Shown here in pieces: positions 3,992 through 47,913 of a DNA stretch of 64,000 nt. A model generated the notes under the pieces. It searched no databases and was not told where the DNA came from. It worked only from the letters and a program-made list of their open reading frames with translations. The stretch comes from an uncultured Desulfurococcales archaeon. GTDB taxonomy: Archaea; Thermoproteota; Thermoprotei_A; EX4484-217-1. Both the position numbers and the translations under genes were made by a program. The stretch is taken from contig CAYOTT010000001.1 of NCBI GenBank assembly GCA_964406965.1, positions 65,699 to 129,698 on the forward strand. Reading direction: 5' to 3'. The number at the start of each line of letters is the position of its first letter. Position 1 is the stretch's first letter.

Positions 3992-4549
3992 TTATGGCAT
4001 TAAATTGTAGAGTTCCTCCTTTCTCTTAAGATTTTTTCCATAAAGTTCATAACTAATTAGCTTAATTTCATTTAAATTTTTAAAGAAACCTATAATCATT
4101 GACGGTCTCATTGAAGCGTATCCTCCACTCCACACTCCTGTAACGGATCCCGGATTCGCTAAGAGCACTCTGTTTACCTTAATTATTCTTAAGTAATGTG
4201 TATGGCCATTTATTAAAATGTTTACTTTAAGATTCTTAGCTACGTTCAATAATCCTTCAACGTCTCCTCTAGGATATACTTGATCGCCATGTATTAAACC
4301 TACACGTACATCGTTAATTTCTTCAATAACATACTCTGGTAAGCTTAAGTAATCCATGTTGCCTCGTACAAAAAACGACTTACGAGCGAGGTTCTTAAAA
4401 AACTCTAAAACCCTTTCTGAAACAAGATCGCCCGTAAAGAATAGGTAATCGTAAGGTGAATTGCTCTCTATGATTTCAAGCATGACTCTAGGTATGTTTT
4501 TAGCTCTCGTAGGAATATGTGTATCACCTGTTATAAGCACTTTATACAT
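3992..4549 (-). CDS. Metallophosphoesterase of the MJ0936/YfcE/Vps29 family.
   Basis: Calcineurin-like motifs GDTH, GDLV, GNMD and GHTH in the expected order. Confidence 0.75.
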   Translation of the reverse strand: MYKVLITGDTHIPTRAKNIPRVMLEIIESNSPYDYLFFTGDLVSERVLEFFKNLARKSFFVRGNMDYLSLPEYVIEEINDVRVGLIHGDQVYPRGDVEGLLNVAKNLKVNILINGHTHYLRIIKVNRVLLANPGSVTGVWSGGYASMRPSMIIGFFKNLNEIKLISYELYGKNLKRKEELYNLMP

Positions 4550-5143: not shown

Positions 5144-5965
5144 GTGGTGCTATGTAATATAGCGGGTGCAATTAAAATGTTTACAGCTGAGATAATTAGT
5201 ATAGGTAACGAATTATTGATAGGAAAAACTGTAAATACTAATGCAACATGGTTAGCTAGAAAACTTACACTCTTGGGATTTAGTGTCAGAAGAATAACAA
5301 CAGTGCCTGATGAAATAAGTGAAATAGTTTCAGCAATAAGAGAAGCCATAAGCAGGGGAACTAAAATTATAGTAACAACAGGAGGTCTCGGACCAACATT
5401 CGATGATAAAACAAGCGAAGCCCTCGCAAAGGCTCTTAATAGAAAATGGGTTATAAATAATGAAGCTTTAGAACTGGTCCGTAAAAAATACTCTAGCATG
5501 GGTTTCGAAATAACTGAGCATCGTTTAAAAATGGCTAAAATGCCGGAAAAAGCTAAGCCTATACCAAATCCCATAGGTTCAGCCCCCGGAATACTTGTTG
5601 AAGAAAATAACTCGCTAATTATAGCTCTACCTGGAGTTCCTAAGGAAATGAAAGCTATTTTTGAAGAATACGTTGAATCAATCCTAAAGAAGAAAGGGCC
5701 AAACATAGTTTTCTACGAAGACACCTTGGTACTCAAAGGGATGCCTGAATCCAGTTTAGCACCATTCCTTGAACAAGCCATGAAGAGAACGGTTAAAACA
5801 TATATAAAAAGTCATCCTAAAGGTTCTGAGAGTAAAGAGCCAGTAATAGAGATACACATCACTTCGTCGGGTAAATCGCTTGAAGAAGCAAGGAAGCTAG
5901 TAAATGAGGCAAAGGAAATTATTAAATCTCTTATTAAGGGTAAAGTCGATATTATAGAACACTAA
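5144..5965 (+). CDS. CinA-like / molybdopterin-binding (MoCF_biosynth) domain protein.
   Basis: TTGGLGPTFDDKT and the PGVPKEM motif typical of the CinA N-terminal domain. Confidence 0.7.
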   Translation: MVLCNIAGAIKMFTAEIISIGNELLIGKTVNTNATWLARKLTLLGFSVRRITTVPDEISEIVSAIREAISRGTKIIVTTGGLGPTFDDKTSEALAKALNRKWVINNEALELVRKKYSSMGFEITEHRLKMAKMPEKAKPIPNPIGSAPGILVEENNSLIIALPGVPKEMKAIFEEYVESILKKKGPNIVFYEDTLVLKGMPESSLAPFLEQAMKRTVKTYIKSHPKGSESKEPVIEIHITSSGKSLEEARKLVNEAKEIIKSLIKGKVDIIEH

Positions 5966-6017
5966 AATATATGTTTCTGGAGATCCCTAAGAGAGTAATG
6001 GTTTAAACAGGGGTAAT

Positions 6018-7094
6018 ATGGATATGGCATTGAAAACAGTAAGTGAAATGTTAACAGTAAAGAAAGGAGTTGTTAATGGTGAAGTAACCTTAATCTCAGC
6101 TGGACCTTTAAAACTAGGAATTTCATATGGTAACAGAAGCGGAAGCCTTCCATTTCAGTTACCTATTCCGGCAGACGCTAAAGTAAAGGAGTTAACTCTT
6201 GAAATAGCCGTTACGCATAGAAGCGAACCTTACAATGTTAAGTGGAGATTATGGTTTAATGGCTTCCCTCTCACAAGAGAGTTTAAGCCCCAAATAACCG
6301 TTGAAGCGAAGGAGAAATTTTTCAGTAAAGTTCTTTTTGACGTAACTCCAGTTCTACATGCAAAGGGCTTTAAGGAGGAAGCAATGCTTACAGTAAAATA
6401 TGATGGCAATGAAAACTTAATTATAGACCATGCAAACCTCATTGTAACCTATGAAACACCTGAGGCAAAATCTTCTTACATTTACTGTTCTGGAGCATTC
6501 CTTATACCTCCAAATACCTCAGCATCATATAGTTTCGATATTTCCGGGGTCGCAGAAGGCTTCGGTGAATTAAGGGGAATCATTATACTTCCCTCTAAAC
6601 TTTCTAAAGCCGAACTTTTCCTCAACGACAAAAGCATTTATAATGCCATAAACATTACTGGTGCTGAAGAATTTTACATAGAGAATGTTGATTTGAAAGA
6701 GAAAAACACCATAAAATTAGTGCATGAAGCACAAGAAAAAGTTCATCTTAAAGACTACGTTAACCTGTCAACAATGTTAGCCTCAATAACTTATATGCTA
6801 AAGCCTAAACTAGACATAGTTAAAGCGCAACTAGTTGCAGTAGATAATAAGGAGAAAGTTGTAGCGAAAATAAGGAATAATGGATACTCTAAGCCAGATA
6901 AGGCTTGGTTATTGATTATAGACACAGGAGTAGTTGTTTCAAGACAAAAACTTCCCCCGCTAAATCCAGGGGAGGAAATAGAACTCGAAATACCATGTAA
7001 AAAGCAGACGTTAACAAAACATGGTATAGTGTTTATTAGAGCCGTATGGACTAAACTCAGTAGAACATTTACTAGTGAAGTAAGAATAAGGTGA
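6018..7094 (+). CDS. Hypothetical protein.
   Basis: Long uninterrupted ORF in a gene-dense region. No motif recognised. Confidence 0.4.
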   Translation: MDMALKTVSEMLTVKKGVVNGEVTLISAGPLKLGISYGNRSGSLPFQLPIPADAKVKELTLEIAVTHRSEPYNVKWRLWFNGFPLTREFKPQITVEAKEKFFSKVLFDVTPVLHAKGFKEEAMLTVKYDGNENLIIDHANLIVTYETPEAKSSYIYCSGAFLIPPNTSASYSFDISGVAEGFGELRGIIILPSKLSKAELFLNDKSIYNAINITGAEEFYIENVDLKEKNTIKLVHEAQEKVHLKDYVNLSTMLASITYMLKPKLDIVKAQLVAVDNKEKVVAKIRNNGYSKPDKAWLLIIDTGVVVSRQKLPPLNPGEEIELEIPCKKQTLTKHGIVFIRAVWTKLSRTFTSEVRIR

Positions 7095-7757
7095 TTAAGT
7101 AGTTTTTGACGGGCAAAAAGTATTTGCTGGACATTCACTACATAAAGGCTTTCTTGCTTTGCATATTTTTCTACCGAAGCTTATTAATTGAAAATGTGCT
7201 TTAAGTCTATATTTTGCAGGTATATTCTTCTCCAAGCATTCTTTAATTTCTTCATAATTGCTTGAACTAACTAAGCCTATTCTTTTAGCTATTCTTCTAA
7301 TGTGCGTATCTACAGGAATTATAGGTTCATTAAATGAAAAAGCAAGTACCACATCGACTGTTTTAGGACCTATGCCTGGTATTTTGATGAGCATCTCTCT
7401 TAACTTCTCACTGTCTAGTGTTTCATGTAGGCGTTGTTCAAGGAATACTTTAGCTACATTCTTTATGACCTTACTTTTCGCTCTATAAAGCCCTGCAGGT
7501 TTAAGCATGCTCCTTAACGCTTCTTCAGAAGTACTTAATATTTTCTCAGGACTTATTCCTCCAAAAGCTTTCTTTAGATTAATGTAAGCTTTCCAAGTAT
7601 TTTTCCAATTAGTATTTTGGGAGATTATAGTTATTATAAGCTGTTCGAAAACATTTCTGCTTTTCACTTCACCAAGTATCTTATTAACTTCATTACCGAA
7701 ATGCTTTTCACAAAATGTTAAAATAGAAGCCAAAGCGAGAAGGGATTTATTCTGCAC
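7095..7757 (-). CDS. nth: Endonuclease III (HhH-GPD DNA glycosylase/AP lyase with a 4Fe-4S cluster).
   Basis: HhH motif IPGIGPKTVDVVL followed by a conserved Asp; C-terminal C-x6-C-x2-C-x5-C cluster (CKARKPLCSECPANTFC). Confidence 0.85.
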   Translation of the reverse strand: MQNKSLLALASILTFCEKHFGNEVNKILGEVKSRNVFEQLIITIISQNTNWKNTWKAYINLKKAFGGISPEKILSTSEEALRSMLKPAGLYRAKSKVIKNVAKVFLEQRLHETLDSEKLREMLIKIPGIGPKTVDVVLAFSFNEPIIPVDTHIRRIAKRIGLVSSSNYEEIKECLEKNIPAKYRLKAHFQLISFGRKICKARKPLCSECPANTFCPSKTT

Positions 7758-17255: not shown

Positions 17256-18422
17256 ATGCACAAATATGATATTGCAATTATTGGCTTAGGACCAGCAGGA
17301 TTATCTCTCATACATTTCCTTATGGAGGAGTCTTTCAATAAGGGCATAGTAGCGTTTGAAGCAAAGAAACATGCTGGACTAAATAATCACTGTGCAGGTC
17401 TAGTTAGCTCAACTTTTATTAGGTTAATGTGGCCTTTTACTAGAGACATAATAATTAATAGCTTTAAAGGATTTTACGTAACAACTCTTTCATCAAATAA
17501 GAGTTTACATGTTAAATTAAATAATAAAGCTTATGTCATAAACCGTGTTGAGTATGAGAGAAAAATCTTTGAAAAGATAAAGGACTCAATAACCTATAGG
17601 CTAAGAGAACCCGTTATTGATATATGGAAGAATAAAATTATTTTAAGGAAAAATAGGAGTGTTGAAGCGAAAACAATAATTATTAGTGAAGGTTCTACGC
17701 ATAAACTAAGAACCAAGATTTTAGGGAGAGGAGGCAAGGACAGAGTATATGGTATTCAAGAGGATGTTAAAGCAAAACCTGAGTACATCAATGATTTTAC
17801 GGTAATATTTTCTGACAAATACGCGAAAGAATTCTTCGGATGGCTTATACCTCTTTCAACAAATAAAGCTAGGATAGGTATTGCTGGGAATAAAGTATCA
17901 TTAAAAATGCTTCGTTTATTTGAAAAACATATTGTGAAAAAGAAGCTTATTACGGAAATCGTAGATCGCAGTAGACCTTTTGGAGGAAGCATTCTCATAA
18001 AACCTCCTAATAAAATAGACCATGTAAACTCATTAATTTTCTTGGGAGACTCAGGATACCATGTAAAACCACTTACGGGAGGAGGACTTTTTATACTTAC
18101 TCTCTTTTCTAAAGCCTTAGCTAAGGCTTTAGCATCAGTGCATAATCATGAAGAAGCCCTTAACTTGTACTATAAAGAAACGTCGATGATTCGTAAGAGG
18201 CTCCATGTACAGAACATTATTTCACGAATTATTCATAAACTAAGTGAAAGAGATAAGGCAATGATTATAGAAGCCCTATATCAAAATGAAATATTTTTAA
18301 AAGATTATGATTTTCACGAAGTAAGTTTATTATCTCTACTAGCTAATAGCAACATTTTACTCAAGATCCTTGCAAGTTCCCCCTCGATCATAAAGGAGTT
18401 TCTAAAAAGTAGGGCTCAATAA
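17256..18422 (+). CDS. FAD-dependent oxidoreductase of the geranylgeranyl reductase family (short paralog).
   Basis: N-terminal Rossmann IAIIGLGPAGLS; GGR-like length and composition. Confidence 0.65.
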   Translation: MHKYDIAIIGLGPAGLSLIHFLMEESFNKGIVAFEAKKHAGLNNHCAGLVSSTFIRLMWPFTRDIIINSFKGFYVTTLSSNKSLHVKLNNKAYVINRVEYERKIFEKIKDSITYRLREPVIDIWKNKIILRKNRSVEAKTIIISEGSTHKLRTKILGRGGKDRVYGIQEDVKAKPEYINDFTVIFSDKYAKEFFGWLIPLSTNKARIGIAGNKVSLKMLRLFEKHIVKKKLITEIVDRSRPFGGSILIKPPNKIDHVNSLIFLGDSGYHVKPLTGGGLFILTLFSKALAKALASVHNHEEALNLYYKETSMIRKRLHVQNIISRIIHKLSERDKAMIIEALYQNEIFLKDYDFHEVSLLSLLANSNILLKILASSPSIIKEFLKSRAQ

Positions 18423-18990
18423 TGCATGAAGCTATTGTTGAAACGTAGCTCACAATAATTATTCCAATTAAGCCAGCGAATGCTATGATATAAGTGTATT
18501 CTCCTACAGGTTTATTTCTAAATCTGGAAATTATTATTTGAAAAATGCCTCCTTGAAGAAGGGATATTGAGATCATGTCTCCGATTATTAGTGGAATATA
18601 CATTGCAACAACACCATAGCTTTCCATTTCAAGTAGTCCAAGAAATAAACCCTCAGCAAAATATGTATATGCAACATACGGCGGAATAAGGGTTGACATT
18701 ATAGTTGTTGAAATACGTGATAAACTAACAATGTTAAAAAGATAAAATGAATTCCCTTGACTAACACCTCTAACTGTGTCATAAAGATTGCTGCATAATT
18801 TTGTCATAGGAGACTCCTTTACCTCCTCATATAGTGGTGTAACTATTGAGCTTGCATATGAGGGATTCGTTATTGATATGGAAAAACCAAATGCTATGGA
18901 TAGAACATATATTACCATAAAAACTATTGGCAGCACTTTACTCCATATTTCAAGCTCGGCTTTTAGGAAAAGCGCTCCTCTATTTAACAC
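18388..18990 (-). CDS. Hypothetical integral membrane protein.
   Basis: Several hydrophobic helices. Confidence 0.4.
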   Translation of the reverse strand: MLNRGALFLKAELEIWSKVLPIVFMVIYVLSIAFGFSISITNPSYASSIVTPLYEEVKESPMTKLCSNLYDTVRGVSQGNSFYLFNIVSLSRISTTIMSTLIPPYVAYTYFAEGLFLGLLEMESYGVVAMYIPLIIGDMISISLLQGGIFQIIISRFRNKPVGEYTYIIAFAGLIGIIIVSYVSTIASCIIEPYFLETPL

Positions 18991-26569: not shown

Positions 26570-27511
26570 CTAAGCTATTAATTCTTTTTCAAGTTTTGAT
26601 TTCACTTTCTCAAATATCTCCAAAACCTCATGTTCATAGGGTATTCCATTTCTTGCCCCCTTTCTCTCAACCTTAATACCAGCTGCAACACTTGCAAATA
26701 ATGCACTATCCCATAAGCTATATCCTTTTAAAAGACTGGCTGTAAGCGCTGCTGCGAAAACATCTCCCGCTCCCGTAGTGTCAACCACTCTCCTAGGCTT
26801 GTATGGTGGAACCCTTATTCTTGCTTCACTCAATACAAGATATGACCCTTTAGAACCCATTTTAACAACAATAAGTTTCGGCCCATATTGCAGAAGTTTA
26901 GAAGCTGATTCAGGATCTTTTACTTTAGTTAAACACTCTAGTTCTCTTAAATTTAGGTAAAGTATTTTTACGTGTGAAAAAATGGGTTTTAGCTCTTCTA
27001 TGCTGTAATGGCATACTATGGAACCTGGATCATAACTAAACGTCATACCGTATTTTGAAGCTATTTCAGCAATAGCTTCTGCAAGCTTCTTTCTTATGCT
27101 TGCAGCATGAATTACTTTCGCTTTTGAAACATATTTTTCATCTATGTCCTCTTTTGAAACATAGGCATTTGCTCCTCTATGTGCTATCATTCTTCTTACT
27201 CCATTTCTAGTGACTATTATGAAGACTTTTCCTGTGGGATGTTCATTATCTATGATAAGGTTTGTTATGTCTACACCTTCCTTTTCAAATTCTTTTTTAA
27301 TAAATTCTCCAAAACTATCTTTACCTATTCTTCCTATGAAACCGCTCTTCATTCCTAATCTAGCTAAAGCTACAGCGTAATTTGATGCCGAACCCCCCGC
27401 TGAAATTATTGAATCATAAGCTTCAATAGCTTCGTCCTCATCAGGAACCCTATCGACATACATTATTATATCTACGTTGGCATTGCCTATAGCTACAACA
27501 TCTAGTACCAT
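26570..27511 (-). CDS. PfkB-family (ribokinase-like) sugar/nucleoside kinase.
   Basis: DTTGAGD motif and an N-terminal GG dipeptide region; 10-bp overlap with the upstream gene. Confidence 0.8.
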   Translation of the reverse strand: MVLDVVAIGNANVDIIMYVDRVPDEDEAIEAYDSIISAGGSASNYAVALARLGMKSGFIGRIGKDSFGEFIKKEFEKEGVDITNLIIDNEHPTGKVFIIVTRNGVRRMIAHRGANAYVSKEDIDEKYVSKAKVIHAASIRKKLAEAIAEIASKYGMTFSYDPGSIVCHYSIEELKPIFSHVKILYLNLRELECLTKVKDPESASKLLQYGPKLIVVKMGSKGSYLVLSEARIRVPPYKPRRVVDTTGAGDVFAAALTASLLKGYSLWDSALFASVAAGIKVERKGARNGIPYEHEVLEIFEKVKSKLEKELIA

Positions 27512-30917: not shown

Positions 30918-32639
30918 CTATTTCAATACACTGGGCCTCTTCACTGTAGCACGAGCCCTAAACAATATCTCCTCCGCCTTCTCGAGAAAATCAGGTGGCA
31001 ATTTTTTAAATACAGGTTTGGGTCTTCTTATTTTATGCCCTGGCTTTACAAATAATTCCCTCATTAAACTCCATTTTTCACGTGTAACATCAGTTTCCAT
31101 GCCGAGCATTTTCCATATTTTTTGCGCATACTTAGGAATAAATGGGGCTAGCATTAGTGCTAAAAACCCTACAGCATTCGCTGAAAGCCATAGGGTCGTT
31201 TTTGCATTCTCTAAAGTTTCTGCCTTTTTAACTTTATCCCAAGGAGCTTTTCTGTTTAAATATTGATTACCTGATCTAGCTAACTCAATGATATGGTGGA
31301 GAGCTTGTTTAAGTCTAACTTCTTCAAAGAATTTACTTACGATATCTGGTGTTTGAAGAATTTTTTCTTTAAATTCATAATCAACTTGGCTTAAAATCCC
31401 TGGCTTAGGAACTTTTTGATCAAAATATTTACTTATAAAGCTTAGTGTCCTATGTATGAAGTTTCCTATATCATCATTTAAATCACTATTTACTATCCTA
31501 TAGAATTCCTTCCATGTGAAATTGGTGTCCTTTACTTCAGGTCTCATAGAGATTAACGCGAATCTCCAATAGTCAGCATCTAGCATTTCTAGAGCTTCAT
31601 CGATCCATACTCCTATTCCTCGACTCTTACTGAACTTCTCTCCTTCAAACGTTAAGTACTCTGTAGCGGCTATTTGCCAAGGGAGAACTAATTTTTCTCC
31701 GGAAGCAAGTATTAATGCAGGCAATATTATTGTATGGAAGGGAATATTGTCTTTCCCTATGAAATACACTGTCTTTGTTTTACTGTCTTTCCAATATTTT
31801 TCCCAGAACTTCTCGTCTCCCTTTTTTACGCCATACTCTATTGTAGCTGAAATATATCCTAAAAGAGCATCAAACCACACATAAACAGTTTTATTCTCAG
31901 CATCAGGGAAGGGTGCGGGTATTCCCCATTTATTATCTCTAGTTATGGCTCTAGGTTTTAATCCCTCCTTAATCCAGTTTAGAGAAAACTTCTTTGCATT
32001 ATCTGGGAAGTTTTCATGTTCTCTTATGAATTTATTAAGAGCATCCGTTAGTTTAGGTAAGTCGAAGTACCAGTGCTTAGTTAATTTAAATATTGGTTTT
32101 GAACCACAAAACACGCATTTAGGGTTTATTAATTGCCAAGGTTCTAGTAGTCTCCCACATTTATCACATTGGTCACCACGTGCTCTTTCATAGCCACAAT
32201 AGGGACATGTTCCTTCAATAAATCTATCCGGTAAAAACATTTTATCTTTAAGACAATAAGGCATTCGTATTTCTTGAGTAAAAATGTAACCATTATTATA
32301 AACTTTAAGTAGAAATTCTCTAACAAACTTAATATGAATAGGATTCTCTGTTCTCGTATAGTTATCAAAGCTTATTTCAAAAGCTTCAAATAGTTTAGAC
32401 ACATACTCATGAACCTGGTCCGTTAACTTCTTTGGTTCTACATTTCTCTTTTTAGCCTCAACCTCTATAGGTGTTCCATGCTCATCACTTCCACTAACAA
32501 AAATTACGTCTTCACCTTTCATTCTAAGATATCTTGCAAAAACATCTGCTGAAAGAACGGAGCCTATGAGCGTTCCTAAGTGAGGTACAGAGTTAACATA
32601 GGGCCATGCTGAACATACAACCCATCTACCCATGCTCAT
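30918..32639 (-). CDS. metG: Methionyl-tRNA synthetase.
   Basis: HLGT (HIGH-like), KFSKSRG (KMSKS), and Zn knuckles CPYCG / CDKCG. Confidence 0.9.
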
Positions 32640-32754: not shown

Positions 32755-33312
32755 GTGGTTTCCTCTATGGTTAAGAGGAGAAAAAGCATTTGGGATTTAT
32801 TTGATGAGTTCTTTGAAGACATTTTTGAGAACATAGATAGGGAATTTAGAGATTGGATGAAAAGGTTTGAACATATAGAAGAGGAAATGGCTAGAGCTAC
32901 TCGTGAGGGAAGAATTATAGGACCTTATGTTTACGGTTTCAGCATAACTATAGGTCCCGATGGAAGACCAGTAATTAAGGAATTTGGTAACATACGTAGG
33001 GAGGCAGGTAGACCTAAAATTGCTGAAGAAAGAGAGCCTCTCGTAGATGTTTTGGAAGACGAAAACACGGTAACTGTTGTAGCTGAAGTACCAGGAGTTA
33101 ATAAGGAGGATATCGATATAAGGATTAAGGACAACACATTAGTAATATCAGCTCAAAGTGGAGATAGAAAATACTATAAGGAAATACAGCTTCCCGCCAA
33201 GGTAAAGCCTGAAACAGCCAAGGCTACATATAAGAATGGTGTTTTAGAGGTCAGACTAGAGAAGGAGAAGAGAGAAAAGAAGGAAGAAGGAATTAAGATT
33301 AAAGTAGAGTAG
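32755..33312 (+). CDS. Small heat shock protein (Hsp20/alpha-crystallin).
   Basis: Alpha-crystallin domain (VTVVAEVPGVNKEDIDIRIKDNTLVISA...GVLEVRLEK). Confidence 0.85.
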   Translation: MVSSMVKRRKSIWDLFDEFFEDIFENIDREFRDWMKRFEHIEEEMARATREGRIIGPYVYGFSITIGPDGRPVIKEFGNIRREAGRPKIAEEREPLVDVLEDENTVTVVAEVPGVNKEDIDIRIKDNTLVISAQSGDRKYYKEIQLPAKVKPETAKATYKNGVLEVRLEKEKREKKEEGIKIKVE

Positions 33313-33370: not shown

Positions 33371-34495
33371 ATGAAACCAAAAATAGTCTTTATTGACTAT
33401 TCAAAATACCCATTTCTCACATCTCCGCAAAAATATTTTGAGGAAAAATATGGTTACTCCCTAAGTTTATCAGAAATTTTTGAAATACACTTAACATCGC
33501 TTGTAGAGAAACGAGTAATTGAAAGAATAATTGGTGCAGTAAGGGGAAAAATATCAGAGCCAAAAGGACTTACTGATGATGAGGAAATAGTGTCTTTTTA
33601 TCTTTCACTCATAGTTTTAGGGGGAATAAACGATAAATGGCTTACATCACGTTATAGTGTCTTTGAAGCTAAAAGAATAAAGAAACATTTAGATAAAGAA
33701 AAGCCGGAGATTTTAGAAGCCATAGGTAAAATTTTAGGTTTAAACATACAATACTTAGGATCTAACAAAGCCTATAAAGTACTTCATGATATTAGAAAGG
33801 GGAGAGCAATTTACACTTACCTCCCATTTAAAGTAACAGTATATGATTACTTAAAATCCTTAAGATTACATACTGATCTCTCATGGAAGCTTTCAAACCA
33901 AATAGTAAGTGAAGGCTACATATACCTCACTCATCAACGGGTAAGTAGATTTTTGGAAGAAATAATATCACAAAAAATAGCTGAAATGGTTAAGCCCATT
34001 GAAATCGATGTGTTACCTGAGAAAATTAAAAAACTTGTAAAAGCAGTCTCCAAAGAGTACTACATCGTTAGAAAGGAACATGTAAAGGAAGCACTAAAAT
34101 TTAGTTTACGAGAGAAATTTGAAGAACTAAAATCTCTGGAGATAATTGAGCCGGAAGCATTTCCTCCATGTATTAAAACATTATATGATGAAGCAATAGA
34201 GGGAAAACATCTATCACACCATGCAAGATTTGCGTTAGCATCGTTTCTTCTTAACATAGGTTTAAATGTTGACTCGGTAGTTAACGTCTTTAGAAAACTG
34301 CCTGACTTTAACGAAACAATTGCAAGATACCAAGTTGAACACCTAGCTGGCCTTAGAGGGTCAAGAAAGAGATATAAACCTTATAACTGCGACACTATGA
34401 GAACATTAGGCCTTTGTGTTTCTGAATGCAGAGTGAAAAATCCCTTAGTATACTATTATAGAGAAGTTTTAAGAAGAATGTCAAAGAGAAGTTAA
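33371..34495 (+). CDS. priL: DNA primase large subunit PriL.
   Basis: C-terminal Fe-S domain pattern PPCIKTLYDEA...HHARFALASFLLNIG plus additional Cys. Confidence 0.65.
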   Translation: MKPKIVFIDYSKYPFLTSPQKYFEEKYGYSLSLSEIFEIHLTSLVEKRVIERIIGAVRGKISEPKGLTDDEEIVSFYLSLIVLGGINDKWLTSRYSVFEAKRIKKHLDKEKPEILEAIGKILGLNIQYLGSNKAYKVLHDIRKGRAIYTYLPFKVTVYDYLKSLRLHTDLSWKLSNQIVSEGYIYLTHQRVSRFLEEIISQKIAEMVKPIEIDVLPEKIKKLVKAVSKEYYIVRKEHVKEALKFSLREKFEELKSLEIIEPEAFPPCIKTLYDEAIEGKHLSHHARFALASFLLNIGLNVDSVVNVFRKLPDFNETIARYQVEHLAGLRGSRKRYKPYNCDTMRTLGLCVSECRVKNPLVYYYREVLRRMSKRS

Positions 34496-35016
34496 ATTTC
34501 AAAAACTATTTTTTCATATCCGCTTATTTTATCGCCTTTCCTTGTCCAAATGTAAAGTATATTTGGTTTCACTAGGTCGAAATCCCCTGAAACATATACC
34601 TCCTTTACTTTTGCTTTTTCGGGAAAGAACCAGTATATTTCATAATCGTACTCTGCTACTTCTTCTTCATAAAAGTCTTCAAAAACGTTTTCTCCTCTCC
34701 TTAAATTACCTTTGAAACGTATAAAGTAGAGTACATATGGATGATCTCTATAACCAGCAAAGTCTATATTGACCATGAGAACTCTAGGTTTAACTCTTAC
34801 ACTGTTCACGAATATTTTTTCTCTTGAAAGAAAATTCTCCATAGCGTTATGAAGCCTACTTATTTCGACATAGTATTCTTCAGGCTTATGTATTAAGTGA
34901 TAATAGTATTCGTCCTCATCATAATAAATAAACCTTAGTATTTGATTAAACATTCCTTTACGTTCAACTATAAAGTAGGATTCTCCATGAATAGGTATGA
35001 GGTTCAACAGCATCAT
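34492..35016 (-). CDS. Hypothetical Tyr-rich protein.
   Basis: ORF only. Confidence 0.35.
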   Translation of the reverse strand: MMLLNLIPIHGESYFIVERKGMFNQILRFIYYDEDEYYYHLIHKPEEYYVEISRLHNAMENFLSREKIFVNSVRVKPRVLMVNIDFAGYRDHPYVLYFIRFKGNLRRGENVFEDFYEEEVAEYDYEIYWFFPEKAKVKEVYVSGDFDLVKPNILYIWTRKGDKISGYEKIVFEI

Positions 35017-35046
35017 CCTCTACATTGAAAAGGAGAAGAAGAGTAT

Positions 35047-35132
35047 ACGGGGGGCCATGACGCCTAGGGGTGGAGTCTCCCGTGTTCACCCCTACCCGCG
35101 ACACGGGTTGAGGTTACACGGGCCGTGGATTC
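35047..35132. ncRNA. GC-rich (about 65% GC) ~86-nt structured element in an AT-rich intergenic region. Candidate stable ncRNA or structured leader of unknown class.
   Basis: Sharp compositional island. 8-bp stem AGGGGTGG/TCACCCCT; CCCGTG...CACGGG pairing; direct repeat ACACGGG x2. No tRNA cloverleaf, 5S or C/D motifs could be fitted. Confidence 0.4.
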
Positions 35133-35152
35133 CATTATTATTTACTAAAGTA

Positions 35153-36994
35153 TTACTTTTTTATTTGTTTCTCTTGTGTCTCCATGGGTTCGGGCCTTAT
35201 TTTAACCCATAATGGCCGTGGGTCTCCGATTACTCGAATAAGGACCTCTCCTGTTCTTAACCATGTCATTCTCTCTTTTTCTGCCTCATTTAGTTTCATA
35301 AACTTACTTACGCTTTCAATATAATCTTTGCTATTTGACCCGAAAACGGCGATTGTTCCAGCATTATCTAGGATTTCCTTTGGAAAATCAGTTATATCTT
35401 GGGAAGCTAAAGCTACTGCGAGTCCGTAGCCTCGTCCCTCCTTTACCAGGGACTTAATAATTTTTGTCCCAGAACGTGTATCCATAAAGCGCCATGCTTC
35501 ATCAAGTATTACTAAGCAACGTATAGTATTTGTTGGCGTTAGCGTTAAAATATAGTTAGCTAAGATCTGAAGTAATGCTAGAGTGTATAATTTACGGTAC
35601 TCCTCAGGCAGCCTATGTAAAAGAAATATTAGAGGCTTCTTAAAGTTAAGAGTATATACGTTACCGTTGAAGAATATCTTTGATCTTAAAGACTCAAGCT
35701 TTGTTAGTAAACTAAACTCAACATCCTTATCACCATAATTCTTAGAGACTTCGGCAACTGTTGATATTAAGTATTTGAAGCTGGGATTATTTGTTGATTC
35801 ATACGTTTTTATAAGTGACATGTATAGTAGATATTCCTCCTTGGAAGTTAATGATGATGCGCTTTTAATAAGCTCAATTATTTGCTTCGCTCTTATTCTA
35901 GGGCTTGTAAACCATGTGTATAATATGTTAACATTGTTTCTTTCAGGATCTATTATTTCAAAAGCACCTGTAGACTTTAAACCGATAAATTCCCCCCTCA
36001 AGTCGAAAATCCATACTGGAATTTCATATTCCTCAATAGCCCTTTTCGCTATTGTGTAAAGGAATGTTGTCTTACCCCTACCTGTAGGCCCTACTATCAC
36101 TATATGTTTAGTTAAGTACTTTTCGAAATCATAAAAGACCGGTGTACCATAGTCTATGTCTTCACCCAAATAAATACCCTTACCGGAAATCTTAGGTCTT
36201 TTAACATATCCTATGGGCATCATGAAGCCTATGTCAGACTCCAACATAATCTTATGTTTAGTTTCTTTAAGAACGCCTAAACTTATTGCTTCTAAAACTT
36301 CATCTTCAGTTGCTTTTCTAACTTCAAAACCCATTGAGGCTTTAAATGACGTTATCACTGTACGTGCTCTTTCCTGAATAGCCTTCATTAACCCCTTTTC
36401 CGACGAAGCATGTGCTTTAACTATTATGTAGTACTTTATACTAATGGGTTTTTCACCCTTAACTATCCTATCATATATTTTTTCTAATCTTCTAAGTTTC
36501 TTTAAAATCTGAGGATTTGCGGGATCTGTTGTAACCATTATCTTATAATTTATAAGTTGTCTTTCTAAGTTCTTCACATATGATGTTGCATTTGCTTTTT
36601 TCTTCAGTAAAACTATTGAAACATCATTTTCGGTTGCTGTAATAAATCCTGTAAAGGATTTAATTTGTTGTATAAGGAAATCCGAAGCCACATCTTTGTA
36701 ACTATAAGGAACATCATCAACCACATATACTGCTAAGCCACTTATGATTTTATCCTTTTTCACAACTAAGATGTTACCTTTAACCACAATATTTGCTTCA
36801 CTAAACTCTAGTTTACGAGGCATTATTTTTGATGAAAGCTTTGGAAAAATCAGTGGTATGTTATAAGCGAAGATGAACAATAAGAACAAGATTATGTAAT
36901 GTTCTAATGCAACAAAATCCCTCAAGAAAACATAAGCTAAAACAAACGCTCCAATAACAATTATGAGCACTGGTATTTTTTCATTATACTCCAT
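35153..36994 (-). CDS. Membrane-anchored VirB4/TrbE-like AAA ATPase (CedB-like).
   Basis: Two N-terminal TM helices; Walker A GPTGRGKTT; Walker B ILDEAWRF (the DEAW of VirB4); GRGYGLAVALASQ. Confidence 0.6.
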   Translation of the reverse strand: MEYNEKIPVLIIVIGAFVLAYVFLRDFVALEHYIILFLLFIFAYNIPLIFPKLSSKIMPRKLEFSEANIVVKGNILVVKKDKIISGLAVYVVDDVPYSYKDVASDFLIQQIKSFTGFITATENDVSIVLLKKKANATSYVKNLERQLINYKIMVTTDPANPQILKKLRRLEKIYDRIVKGEKPISIKYYIIVKAHASSEKGLMKAIQERARTVITSFKASMGFEVRKATEDEVLEAISLGVLKETKHKIMLESDIGFMMPIGYVKRPKISGKGIYLGEDIDYGTPVFYDFEKYLTKHIVIVGPTGRGKTTFLYTIAKRAIEEYEIPVWIFDLRGEFIGLKSTGAFEIIDPERNNVNILYTWFTSPRIRAKQIIELIKSASSLTSKEEYLLYMSLIKTYESTNNPSFKYLISTVAEVSKNYGDKDVEFSLLTKLESLRSKIFFNGNVYTLNFKKPLIFLLHRLPEEYRKLYTLALLQILANYILTLTPTNTIRCLVILDEAWRFMDTRSGTKIIKSLVKEGRGYGLAVALASQDITDFPKEILDNAGTIAVFGSNSKDYIESVSKFMKLNEAEKERMTWLRTGEVLIRVIGDPRPLWVKIRPEPMETQEKQIKK

Positions 36995-37003
36995 AGCTTA
37001 CAC

Positions 37004-37186
37004 CTATTTTAAAATGCCCCTGTAATATATGATGAGTGTAATCGTAGGGATTATGATAAGCATTACTAGTAAAATAGTTAGCATGATATTCAAGTTGGCA
37101 CTATTCTTTACGATAATGTAAGTTACGTAAAGTACGTTAATTAAGTATAGTATTAGCATTGTTTTAAAATTAAAAGGATTCACCAT
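37004..37186 (-). CDS. Small two-TM membrane protein (CedA1/A2-like).
   Basis: 60 aa, two hydrophobic helices, tightly packed between the neighbouring genes. Confidence 0.4.
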   Translation of the reverse strand: MVNPFNFKTMLILYLINVLYVTYIIVKNSANLNIMLTILLVMLIIIPTITLIIYYRGILK

Positions 37187-37194
37187 TAACCACC

Positions 37195-38643
37195 TTACAC
37201 TCTATCTCTTATCGGTAAACGTAATTTTCTACCTCCAAGAGTATATGCGAAAGAGTAAGTTATCGAAACAAGAATCGTTAAATAAGTTACAGGTAATATT
37301 ATCCATTGAAAGAACACTTTACCTATGGCTTCACCTAAATTTTGAACATTAATATTAGAGTTTAAAGAGTTATCTATACCGCTAAAATACCCTTTATCTA
37401 CGAGTTGAATACTTTCTTTACCAACTACAACATAGGATACCTCTATAACCGTAGATCCTTTAGGTAAGTGGAAGCTTATGGTTGAAACATTTACATTGTT
37501 CCAAGTATAGCTTCTACTGGTAAATTTAATTTCATCATTGTTCACCTTCAACTTTGTTAATTTCGCAGCTTTAGGGATGTAGGCGATTACTGCTTCTTGT
37601 GGTTCATTCAAAACTATATTAAGAACGTACGTGTTTCCTTGTTCATAGACTTCAGCATTATTTACTTCATTCTGTAATATTAAAAGAACTGTATGGCCAA
37701 AATAAATAACATTATTTAGTGTAAAGTCATGTATGTAGTCTGCGTCGGGATCCAAATAGGGATTGTAGAGAAATTCGTTCATAGATATGTTCATAGAGCT
37801 TATGCTAATACCTAAGTAGCTGAGCTTAACGTAAAATCCGTTTACTTTTGCAGGTAATCCTCCAAAGGGTCTTCCAGCATTATAAAAGCCATTTTCGTCA
37901 GTATAGTATATAGCTATAGGATCTATGCTACTTTCTTTAAGAAACCATTCCGTTTTAATATACGGTATAGGCTTCCCCATAATATCTTTAACTAATCCCT
38001 TAGCAAAAAATACTCCAAGATCCTCCCTAGGCTTAAGTGAACTACTTATACTCGTATTTGAAAGGGGATTATCTCCGCCTACACTCATAACATTTACAAA
38101 TGTTGGAAGAAGCGGGAGAGCTATTGTGAAAACTATAGACATAGCTATTAATGATGCCCCTGCGCTTCTAGCTAATCTAAATGGTACTGCATAAAGTAGT
38201 ATTCCGAAGGCAAGTATTTTTGCAAAATACCCTTTAAACACTAATCCTAAAACAAAGAAAAACTCCATAACTATAAGCGTATATGTAGCTATACTAGTTA
38301 TTGGTCCTAAGAAAGATGCAACTAAAGCTCTTCCTCCAGCTTGAGATATAGCTAAAGAAATACTTATTAGCAGTGAAATAAATGAACCTAAAATAGCTAT
38401 TCTTTCAATAAGCCAGTTAAAGTAAAGGTTCCAACTAACTCCCAAAATACCTCCAAAATAGGATGTAGCTTCAATTATCGATGTAAACAATAAAACTAAA
38501 ATCGTTACTGCAAACGAATCGTAAATTAAAGTCGGCGCCCATTTCTTAATGCTCCAAACAGGTATAGGTAACAAGTATATAAGTACACCTAGGTAGTAAG
38601 TTAGTATAGCTAATGAATAGGCGATTATTAGAAACTCGTCCAT
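37195..38643 (-). CDS. Polytopic membrane protein with a large extracytoplasmic domain (CedA-like candidate).
   Basis: About 6 N-terminal TM helices, a soluble domain of about 240 aa rich in Asn/Tyr, and a C-terminal TM. Confidence 0.45.
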   Translation of the reverse strand: MDEFLIIAYSLAILTYYLGVLIYLLPIPVWSIKKWAPTLIYDSFAVTILVLLFTSIIEATSYFGGILGVSWNLYFNWLIERIAILGSFISLLISISLAISQAGGRALVASFLGPITSIATYTLIVMEFFFVLGLVFKGYFAKILAFGILLYAVPFRLARSAGASLIAMSIVFTIALPLLPTFVNVMSVGGDNPLSNTSISSSLKPREDLGVFFAKGLVKDIMGKPIPYIKTEWFLKESSIDPIAIYYTDENGFYNAGRPFGGLPAKVNGFYVKLSYLGISISSMNISMNEFLYNPYLDPDADYIHDFTLNNVIYFGHTVLLILQNEVNNAEVYEQGNTYVLNIVLNEPQEAVIAYIPKAAKLTKLKVNNDEIKFTSRSYTWNNVNVSTISFHLPKGSTVIEVSYVVVGKESIQLVDKGYFSGIDNSLNSNINVQNLGEAIGKVFFQWIILPVTYLTILVSITYSFAYTLGGRKLRLPIRDRV

Positions 38644-38677
38644 TACTTAACCCTTATAGTACCACTCATTATATTGA

Positions 38678-38992
38678 CTAAGTTGATGAGGCTATGTACT
38701 TTATTAAAGCAAAAATGCTTGTTCCTACAGCTAGCCAGAATGCACCTAAAATAGCATCTTCAACTATGTCCTGTCCAAACCTTTTTACTCTATATATTGG
38801 AATAGGTGAGCCCTTTAGAAGCCACCCAATGGCCCATGAAAGCATGAAGAGAGCCCATGCTGCAATAACTACTCTGTTAGTTAAATCATTGATTAGCGCT
38901 TCTATATCCACAACTATCCCCCCTAAGAATATATTGCTTTTTAAAAGGCTTTTTTGGGCTTTTAAAAAGCAATTATTTAAGATGATTCTCAA
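38678..38992 (-). CDS. Small membrane protein.
   Basis: 104 aa, two or three hydrophobic helices. Confidence 0.4.
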   Translation of the reverse strand: MRIILNNCFLKAQKSLLKSNIFLGGIVVDIEALINDLTNRVVIAAWALFMLSWAIGWLLKGSPIPIYRVKRFGQDIVEDAILGAFWLAVGTSIFALIKYIASST

Positions 38993-47520: not shown

Positions 47521-47913
47521 CTATAGTTCACTTTTAACAATGTTTACACTATAACCTAACTCCTCCAATACTTTCATAACATTTTCAAGGGAAATCGAAC
47601 GGTCAAAAATTAAACCTACTTTCTTTCTACCGTTTTCACCGATAAGAAGCTTCACTTTATCGAAGAGAATTGTTCCTTTAAGCATATCACTTGAGTCATG
47701 AGGTATTAAAATATAGTTTTTAAACTTTTTGCGAGCTATGTCATAAAATACATCAAAATTACGTATGATCCTAAGTACTTCTTTAATATCTTTATTCTTA
47801 CTTGGAAATCTTTTGGAAAGCATTCGTAAAAATTCTTCAGAATCCTCTAAGGGAATCTCAATGTATTTATAGTTTCCCAACATAACTTTTACCGTAATTT
47901 CCTTAGACATCAC
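47521..47913 (-). CDS. Hypothetical protein.
   Basis: ORF only. Confidence 0.35.
   Translation of the reverse strand: MMSKEITVKVMLGNYKYIEIPLEDSEEFLRMLSKRFPSKNKDIKEVLRIIRNFDVFYDIARKKFKNYILIPHDSSDMLKGTILFDKVKLLIGENGRKKVGLIFDRSISLENVMKVLEELGYSVNIVKSEL

Follow-up and report, generated by a model that had tools for sequence, protein, structure and literature searches.

What is a short, strongly GC-rich segment doing between two genes of an otherwise AT-rich archaeal genome? Where a genome is AT-rich, a GC-rich island between genes is a recognised hallmark of a structured RNA gene (PMC6429828, PMC3124441). The window analysed here, by which we mean the whole 64-kb stretch of DNA, carries one such island at positions 35047..35132, a candidate small structured RNA in its long form that we tentatively assign to the plus strand. 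GC content was 0.60-0.625 in 80-nt windows over the island versus ~0.33 in the flanks. The 60-nt GC maximum of the entire window (0.717) fell at 35048-35107, about 5.9 standard deviations above the window mean (0.352, sd 0.062), while the second-best 60-nt island reached only 0.583. The island is single copy within the 64 kb and lies in the 136-bp gap between the end of cedB (35153) and the ATG of ORF 34492-35016 (at 35016). A preliminary description had reported this GC-rich island, the gap between the stop of an ATPase gene and the start of that ORF, and several stems with a duplicated ACACGGG; each was recovered at the same coordinates. One inverted repeat joins TAGGGGTG at 35065-72 to CACCCCTA at 35087-94, and CCCGTGT at 35079-85 is complementary to ACACGGG twice, at 35101-07 and 35116-22. 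Folded as a single sequence, the island has an unexceptional energy (z of -1.4 on the plus strand and -1.6 on the minus strand), and the case for structure therefore rests on comparison between genomes rather than on folding energy.

The gene order across the locus is MetRS (30918-32639, minus strand), Hsp20 (32755-33312, plus), PriL, the primase large subunit (33371-34495, plus), a conserved gene whose longest ORF specifies 174 amino acids (34492-35016, minus), the island, and a four-gene cluster on the minus strand. The cluster gene facing the island, cedB (35153..36994, minus), encodes the ATPase of the Ced DNA-import system: its 613-aa product has DNA_import_CedB as the top NCBIfam match (279 bits, end-to-end alignment). 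The 482-aa and 104-aa products of the cluster match CedA and CedA1, and a 60-aa gene stands beside these three. Judged by the matches, this is a complete chromosomal Ced DNA-import system. The earlier label of the 613-aa protein as a VirB4-like ATPase was right as to the ATPase and is corrected here as to its identity, which is CedB, with CedA1 and CedA adjoining. A conjugative-plasmid context is ruled out by the neighbours, as MetRS, Hsp20, PriL and the Ced cluster mark the locus as chromosomal. Relatives of the encoded proteins came solely from uncultured Desulfurococcales/Thermoproteota MAGs, with none from Sulfolobales, and many genes in the window, the 174-aa gene included, have GGAGG/GGTGA boxes 5-10 nt ahead of the start codon. 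The assumption of a Sulfolobales host with mostly leaderless mRNAs does not fit a Desulfurococcales-like MAG of this kind, and since the genome is not from Sulfolobales, the argument that a long leader would be unusual there is moot.

The 174-aa gene itself matches no family. Its probable start is a TTG at 35007-35005, behind a GAGG SD motif at 35017-35020, and its product had no sequence match in Pfam, NCBIfam or PDB. A structure model of the protein (pLDDT 94.9) is a beta-sandwich, and structural comparison of the model returned no informative neighbour (TM 0.3-0.44). Distant homologs of the gene lie in other neighbourhoods with no island upstream, which indicates that the island is not an attribute of this gene family. 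As to the ced side, the whole neighbourhood from PAPS reductase to PriL/Hsp20 is syntenic in related genomes, so the adjacency of island and ced genes may be historical rather than functional. Searches of the literature retrieved no description of an RNA near ced genes.

Orthologous loci were gathered through CedB, through the 174-aa protein and by one pattern scan of a metagenome collection. At every recovered locus with cedB/174-aa synteny the island was present in the same gap, yielding 13 distinct sequences, and a covariance model (R1) added a divergent 14th copy, also syntenic, in locus L010. CedB identity among the island-bearing loci extends down to ~54%. Half of the copies are long forms with ~86 nt of high GC (n=7; the window, L003, L001, L005, L018, L013 and L006), and half are short forms of ~65 nt (n=7; L002, L007, L016, L008, L009, L012 and L010). 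The conserved core common to both corresponds to 35057..35126 of the window on the plus strand, as delimited by its match to R1; the scores of that match, 92.1 bits on the plus strand versus 22.4 bits on the minus strand, differ through the construction of the model and serve only to delimit the core. Identity to the window sequence was 0.66-0.94 in the core versus 0.47-0.74 in the flanks.

Outside these loci the element was not encountered. The metagenome pattern scan returned syntenic copies only, plus 4 chance matches in contigs of 57-73% GC; R1, run over the window and 17 loci (232 kb), found no paralogs besides the syntenic copies; a scan of viral contigs found no copy of the island; and similarity searches against plasmids and phages gave chance AT-rich matches only. 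To judge from these sequences, and within the collections that were searched, the family occurs in a single lineage of uncultured Desulfurococcales-like archaea only, and its members always lie between cedB and the conserved 174-aa gene.

RNAalifold, applied to the plus strand, gave a consensus with a short hairpin on the 5′ side (d, 35061-64/35069-72) and, 3′ of it, a composite hairpin built from stems a, xy and b. Stem a joins CCCGUGU (35079..35085) to ACACGGG (35116..35122), with 93 of 98 cells of the alignment Watson-Crick; at its pair 35085/35116, 10 sequences have C-G and 3 have U-A, a swap of separate origin in the long clade and in the short one. Above it, stem xy pairs ACC (35088..35090) with GGU (35112..35114), and its middle pair, 35089/35113, occurs as C-G (6 sequences), U-A (7) or U.G (1). 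The apical hairpin b (35094..35108; 35094-98/35104-08) reads ACCCG, loop CGACA, CGGGU, and has 61 Watson-Crick, 1 G.U and 1 A.C cells, with a loop that differs in sequence and length between clades. In the trimmed alignment (A3), 97.3% of the cells of this nested structure were paired, versus 29-56% when the 3′ partners were slid by 1-3 columns. Four of its pairs had changed on both sides (compensatory C-G/U-A replacements), and the covariation score of A3 exceeded that of 500 of 500 shuffles. These controls are lenient, as many of the pairs are invariant and the structures were tested on the very sequences that had yielded them. The sample consists of 14 sequences in ~4 clades; we consider the main hairpin a/xy/b well supported, not proven. 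The comparative alignment that the preliminary description had proposed as a check thus came out in favour of a structured RNA: the island is kept in place in all syntenic genomes, with compensatory base changes.

Comparison with known RNA classes gave no identity. In Rfam 15 there was no match at the gathering threshold over the 64-kb window, none at E<=10 in 34900-35300, and none at E<=5 over the element in five orthologous loci, so that the covariance-model scan suggested earlier assigned no family to the island. ARAGORN found no tRNA in the window, the Rfam tRNA model did not match even at E<=10, and neither strand contains a T-loop of the GTTCRAATC type. By these negative results, and the lack of the box motifs considered below, the island is not a tRNA, 5S RNA or C/D sRNA, into none of which the preliminary description had been able to fold it. 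A box C/D sRNA has RUGAUGA close to its 5′ end and CUGA close to its 3′ end, keeps a 12-nt guide spacing and is ~50-60 nt long. In the island, neither strand of 35040-35135 contains TGATGA, CUGA is limited to L001 and L013, and the length and helices are unsuitable. An H/ACA sRNA, which would have an open pseudouridylation pocket between a lower and an upper stem, a K-turn or K-loop in the upper stem and an ACA box directly 3′ of the lower stem, was rejected. Stem a is followed by CCG, AUC or UUC on the plus strand and by AGA, AGG or GGG on the minus strand, never by ACA; the covarying xy helix closes what would be the pocket, and the upper stem has 4-5 bp and lacks a K-turn. Split tRNAs occur in Desulfurococcales, but the acceptor, D-arm and T-arm features of a split-tRNA half are missing here. 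A tRNA fragment or att site was likewise dismissed, there being no ARAGORN or Rfam signal and nothing beyond chance plasmid and phage matches. A riboswitch on the plus strand would have no downstream gene to act on, cedB being antisense, and on the minus strand no conserved pairing was found between the element and the SD of the 174-aa gene 26-38 nt downstream. Stem a and segment X (described below) lie too close together to accommodate the P3 of an HDV-like ribozyme topology, and a replication origin or ORB element does not agree with a single copy that lacks repeats.

Further helices flank or overlap the main hairpin. Hairpin d (35061..35072, plus strand) is formed by CGCC, loop UAGG and GGUG, with 39 Watson-Crick, 16 G.U and 0 A.C cells. 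In the short forms it is a 6-bp hairpin, GUUGCC-UAGG-GGCAAC; in the long forms it supplies the NC stem of a K-turn-like motif. The other helix of that motif, stem e, is restricted to long forms and pairs ACGGGGGGC at 35047..35055 with GUCUCCCGU at 35075..35083 (both plus strand). All 63 of its cells in the 7 long forms are paired over 9 bp (49 Watson-Crick, 14 G.U, 0 mismatches). Between stem e and hairpin d lies a bulge, CAU, followed by G-A (35056..35060, plus strand), and these residues together with G-A at 35073-35074 would form tandem G.A/A.G pairs adjoining a closing C-G pair. All 7 long forms keep the tandem GA/GA unchanged; the bulge is 2 nt long in L001 and L013 and 3 nt long in the other 5. 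In the published consensus that L7Ae recognises, a K-turn has a canonical (C) helix ending in C-G/G-C, then a bulge of 3 nt, tandem G.A and A.G pairs in trans, and a non-canonical (NC) helix (PMC4316175). By its C-G closing pair, 3-nt bulge and tandem G.A/A.G, the predicted 5′ helix (stems e and d) of the window and four other long forms fits this consensus. The motif is absent from all 7 short forms, L010 counted, and for that reason the K-turn does not define the family.

An alternative pairing, stem c, engages the 3′ part of hairpin d. Segment Z (35065..35073, plus strand) pairs with segment X, UCACCCCUA (35086..35094, plus strand), which overlaps the 5′ strand of stem xy. Over 126 cells (14 sequences), stem c has 99 Watson-Crick and 21 G.U cells, with 4 A.C, 1 other mismatch and 1 gap; one of its pairs varies from G-C through G.U to A-U. 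In L010 the sequence of hairpin d is missing, but GAGGUGA is kept and makes 7 bp with X. Stems c and a are interleaved and abut with 0 nt between them, the topology of an H-type pseudoknot, with candidate loops of 2-10 nt before stem a and a last loop of ~21 nt that carries hairpin b. The pseudoknot version (c plus a) was paired in 95.5% of cells versus 35-54% for slid partners, and the nested alternative (hairpin d plus xy) is conserved to an equal degree. The two cannot coexist: stem c is incompatible with hairpin d and stem xy, and stem e is likewise incompatible with stem a, with which its 3′ strand shares CCCGU at 35079-83. The comparative data thus suggest that two alternative folds are both conserved.

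Which strand would be transcribed? The additional helices argue for the plus strand, which we hold to be the transcribed one with somewhat better than even confidence. Helices d, c and e pair only in that orientation, because their G.U wobbles turn into A.C mismatches on the minus strand (16, 21 and 14 of them, respectively, where the plus strand has 0, 4 and 0). RNAalifold, with both strands treated alike, returned conserved helices beyond the main hairpin on the plus strand only, and the K-turn consensus is likewise present on the plus strand only. As for the pseudoknot, two nucleotides suffice to span the deep groove of the 7-bp stem a, though not its shallow groove, and by this established stereochemistry the loop lengths would be workable only in the plus orientation. 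Signals that might end a plus-strand transcript include a run of six T over the last cedB codons (T6, 35157..35162, plus strand), a possible archaeal oligo-T terminator ~35 nt past the last helix, and, in the short forms, U-tracts 5-10 nt past stem a. No intrinsic-terminator-like hairpin, with a T-run directly behind a GC-rich stem, was found on either strand of 34900-35300; across the copies, T-runs lie 5-35 nt from the stems. The promoter and terminator scan was of the sigma-70 type, which is uninformative for an archaeon. Ahead of the plus-strand 5′ edge, no consistent TATA-like box was seen by eye across lineages, and such by-eye promoter reading in an AT-rich genome is weak evidence.

The preliminary description had preferred a minus-strand transcript or leader. 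The structured-RNA part of that proposal holds, and its strand assignment is not supported by d, e and c. A minus-strand RNA is a serious, though less probable, rival: it could be the 5′ leader of the 174-aa gene, a separate sRNA or a protective 3′ end of cedB, in which case only hairpin a/xy/b would be structural and the CCCCUAGGC region would have another purpose. The main hairpin is strand-symmetric and does not discriminate; stem xy would even gain a fourth pair, as 35091/35111 is C.A on the plus strand in 7 sequences and G.U on the minus strand (G.U or A-U there). After realignment of the xy helix the nested consensus energies are nearly equal on both strands. Single-sequence folding z-scores are modest across the sequences (-1 to -4) and better on the minus strand for long forms, which as single sequences fold 2-6 kcal/mol better in that orientation. 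Both flanking genes lie on the minus strand, and the SD box of the 174-aa gene requires some leader. A TATA-like block had been noted to the right of the island; an A-rich putative box, AAATAAAAAAG, spans the cedB stop there (35156..35166, minus strand). In the minus-strand sense it precedes the edge of the island by 23-24 nt, and equivalents stand at 23-27 nt in all lineages. Against this, the 174-aa gene can use a TATA-like box of its own downstream of the island, putatively the palindrome GTATAC at 35043..35048 (not strand-specific) between island and gene, replaced in orthologs by ATTAAT, AAATTAG or AATTAAAG. The spacing from GTATAC to the SD matches that of other genes in the window (15-25 nt), and the gene therefore does not need the island as a leader; its distant homologs do without such a leader altogether. 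Most orthologs, moreover, have T-runs between the cedB stop and the island, and on the minus strand RNAalifold finds the main hairpin only, which gives no account of the GCCTAGGGG block, nearly invariant as it is, or of the extra sequence of the long forms.

Readings that involve no RNA are, even taken together, unlikely. The one we would weigh most among them, though improbable in itself, is a DNA-level element, either a site bound by a regulator of the adjacent or divergent genes or a ssDNA hairpin used by the Ced machinery. A nearly invariant CCTAGG palindrome at the island centre, the position directly upstream of the TATA-like box of the 174-aa gene and beside the ced cluster, and the symmetry of the main hairpin would suit it; compensatory changes over ~60 nt and helices that depend on wobble pairs are unexpected for a duplex protein site, and each genome has a single copy, which lacks both repeats and an origin-type AT-rich unwinding flank. 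Ced is not known to be linked to a specific DNA site, and none is mentioned in PMC11868833. Still less probable is a non-functional relic, such as a decayed tRNA, integration site or mobile element kept through kinship alone. The restriction of the family to one lineage, the lack of an Rfam match and the modest folding z-scores are what a relic would predict, but the island is retained at 54% CedB identity while the AT-rich flanks diverge, its substitutions and indels preserve pairing, it has no tRNA-like arm, and no copy was found in viral contigs, plasmids or phages. The least credible reading, to which we give almost no weight, is a small protein, encoded by the plus-strand ORF 34997-35212 or by a micro-ORF from the GUG at 35082. 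The ORF is present in the window, and the G-rich segment Z resembles an SD and is followed by GUG; in orthologs, however, ORF 34997-35212 is broken by frameshift or stop through 1-nt indels, ORF length and frame vary (9 codons in the window, 17-23 or more in orthologs), and the changes fall at first and second codon positions and are not synonymous.

The island is conserved, it varies in ways that preserve pairing, and it matches no known family. Our preferred reading, which we put at about an even chance, is that it encodes, on the plus strand, a small structured non-coding RNA of high GC content that belongs to a family not yet described. Transcribed toward cedB and away from the 174-aa gene, this RNA would be a stable stand-alone transcript of ~65-115 nt that ends at the U-tracts overlapping the cedB stop. 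Long forms might bind L7Ae at the K-turn. The product could be a ribonucleoprotein or a regulatory RNA that alternates between hairpin d plus xy and the pseudoknot stem c, and between stem e and stem a. Its nearest possible target would be the 3′ end of the convergent cedB transcript, and the most economical guess is a protein-bound structural or regulatory RNA acting near that end. A bolder version, which we regard as a long shot, makes it a conformational switch dedicated to Ced, with the K-turn/hairpin fold and the pseudoknot fold exchanged in response to L7Ae, temperature or a ligand; the fold would then set the reach of convergent antisense transcription into cedB, or the processing of the cedB-174-aa intergenic transcript. 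If that were true, DNA uptake of these archaea would be tuned by the island RNA.

Should the plus-strand RNA be expressed, it would represent a new structured RNA family in a hydrothermal-vent lineage that is known only from metagenomes and in which almost no non-coding RNAs have been described so far. For an RNA of 70-90 nt, two mutually exclusive conserved folds, a K-turn-like motif in one sub-clade and a fixed site beside the Ced genes are an unusual combination. With ~14 natural variants, the family offers a small, delimited test case in which pseudoknot and nested folds can be compared at high temperature. If it proves to be an ordinary orphan sRNA or leader, its value will lie mainly in annotation.

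Several known systems invite comparison with the proposed RNA. Archaeal cis-antisense and convergent sRNAs resemble it in that a plus-strand transcript would run toward, and possibly into, the 3′ end of cedB, with its start beside the 5′ end of the divergent gene. Unlike them, the conserved part of the island is a compact structure inside the gap rather than the complement of a coding region, and overlap with cedB would hinge on read-through of the U-tracts. The pseudoknot version recalls the preQ1-II riboswitch, in which stem 1, a short loop 1, an abutting stem 2 and a hairpin in loop 3 have counterparts here in Z-X (7-9 bp), the short loop before stem a, stem a (6-7 bp) and hairpin b. There is, however, no sequence similarity, no Rfam match and no plus-strand gene downstream of the island; preQ1-II is bacterial, and the island pseudoknot competes with a conserved nested fold. 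Among RNAs that bind L7Ae at K-turns (C/D and H/ACA guides, RNase P RNA), the predicted fold of the long forms has a like C-G pair, 3-nt bulge (in five of the seven) and tandem G.A/A.G; the long forms differ from the guides in having neither a C/D box pair (no RUGAUGA) nor an ACA box nor an open pseudouridylation pocket. The broadest likeness is to the Hgc RNAs of Pyrococcus and Methanocaldococcus, GC-rich structured non-coding RNA genes of AT-rich hyperthermophiles that Klein et al. reportedly found in 2002. The island differs from them in that it belongs to a Thermoproteota lineage and matches no Rfam family, the Hgc families included. Like them, it is a short intergenic island of ~65-70% GC in a genome of ~35% GC, and its base changes preserve pairing.

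Window positions 35153-38992 on the minus strand constitute a complete Ced DNA-import cluster in a Desulfurococcales-like MAG, encoding CedA1 (38678-38992), a product resembling CedA (482 aa, 37195-38643), one resembling CedA2 (60 aa, 37004-37186) and CedB (35153-36994), all on that strand. In orthologous loci, an RHH-domain gene is located upstream of the cluster.

The cedB stop codon is spanned by a hairpin composed entirely of A and T (ATAATA...TATTAT), with T-runs on both the plus and minus strands. It is found at 35136-35166 in the window and in loci carrying the short, ~65-nt form of the GC-rich island (e.g. ~5873-5900 in L002). This hairpin looks like a bidirectional terminator separating cedB from the proposed plus-strand RNA. 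The related locus L010, in its region 5851-6150, contains ~240 bp of additional DNA between the end of cedB and the RNA element, and the C-terminus of its CedB deviates. Because short repeats, TTAGAATAGTG, flank this DNA, it may be an insertion.

The 174-aa gene (34492-35016, minus strand) and proteins P0014-P0028 form one conserved family of ~171-194 aa, for which sequence searches of Pfam, NCBIfam and PDB returned no match. AlphaFold confidently predicts a beta-sandwich for the window protein (pLDDT 94.9), and the top TM-scores obtained with this model in Foldseek were only 0.3-0.44. The true start of the gene is probably the TTG at 35007-35005, following a Shine-Dalgarno (SD) sequence, GAGG, at 35017-35020. 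SD-like GGAGG/GGTGA boxes lie 5-10 nt 5′ of the start codons of many window ORFs (3992-4549, 7095-7757, 18388-18990 and 47521-47913, for example). At many ORFs, TATA-like boxes are just 15-25 nt upstream of the SD-like box, a spacing that suggests short leaders starting at the SD box itself.

The second-ranked GC island of the window (26738-26797, 0.583 in 60 nt) falls within ORF 26570-27511. At an identical intergenic position in L002 (8727-8787, minus strand) and L008 (8742-8802, minus strand), two loci sharing the cedB/174-aa gene synteny, weak, sub-threshold Rfam matches (18-25 bits) to the archaeal C/D-box sRNAs sR11, sR12 and sR39 mark a possible C/D sRNA gene.
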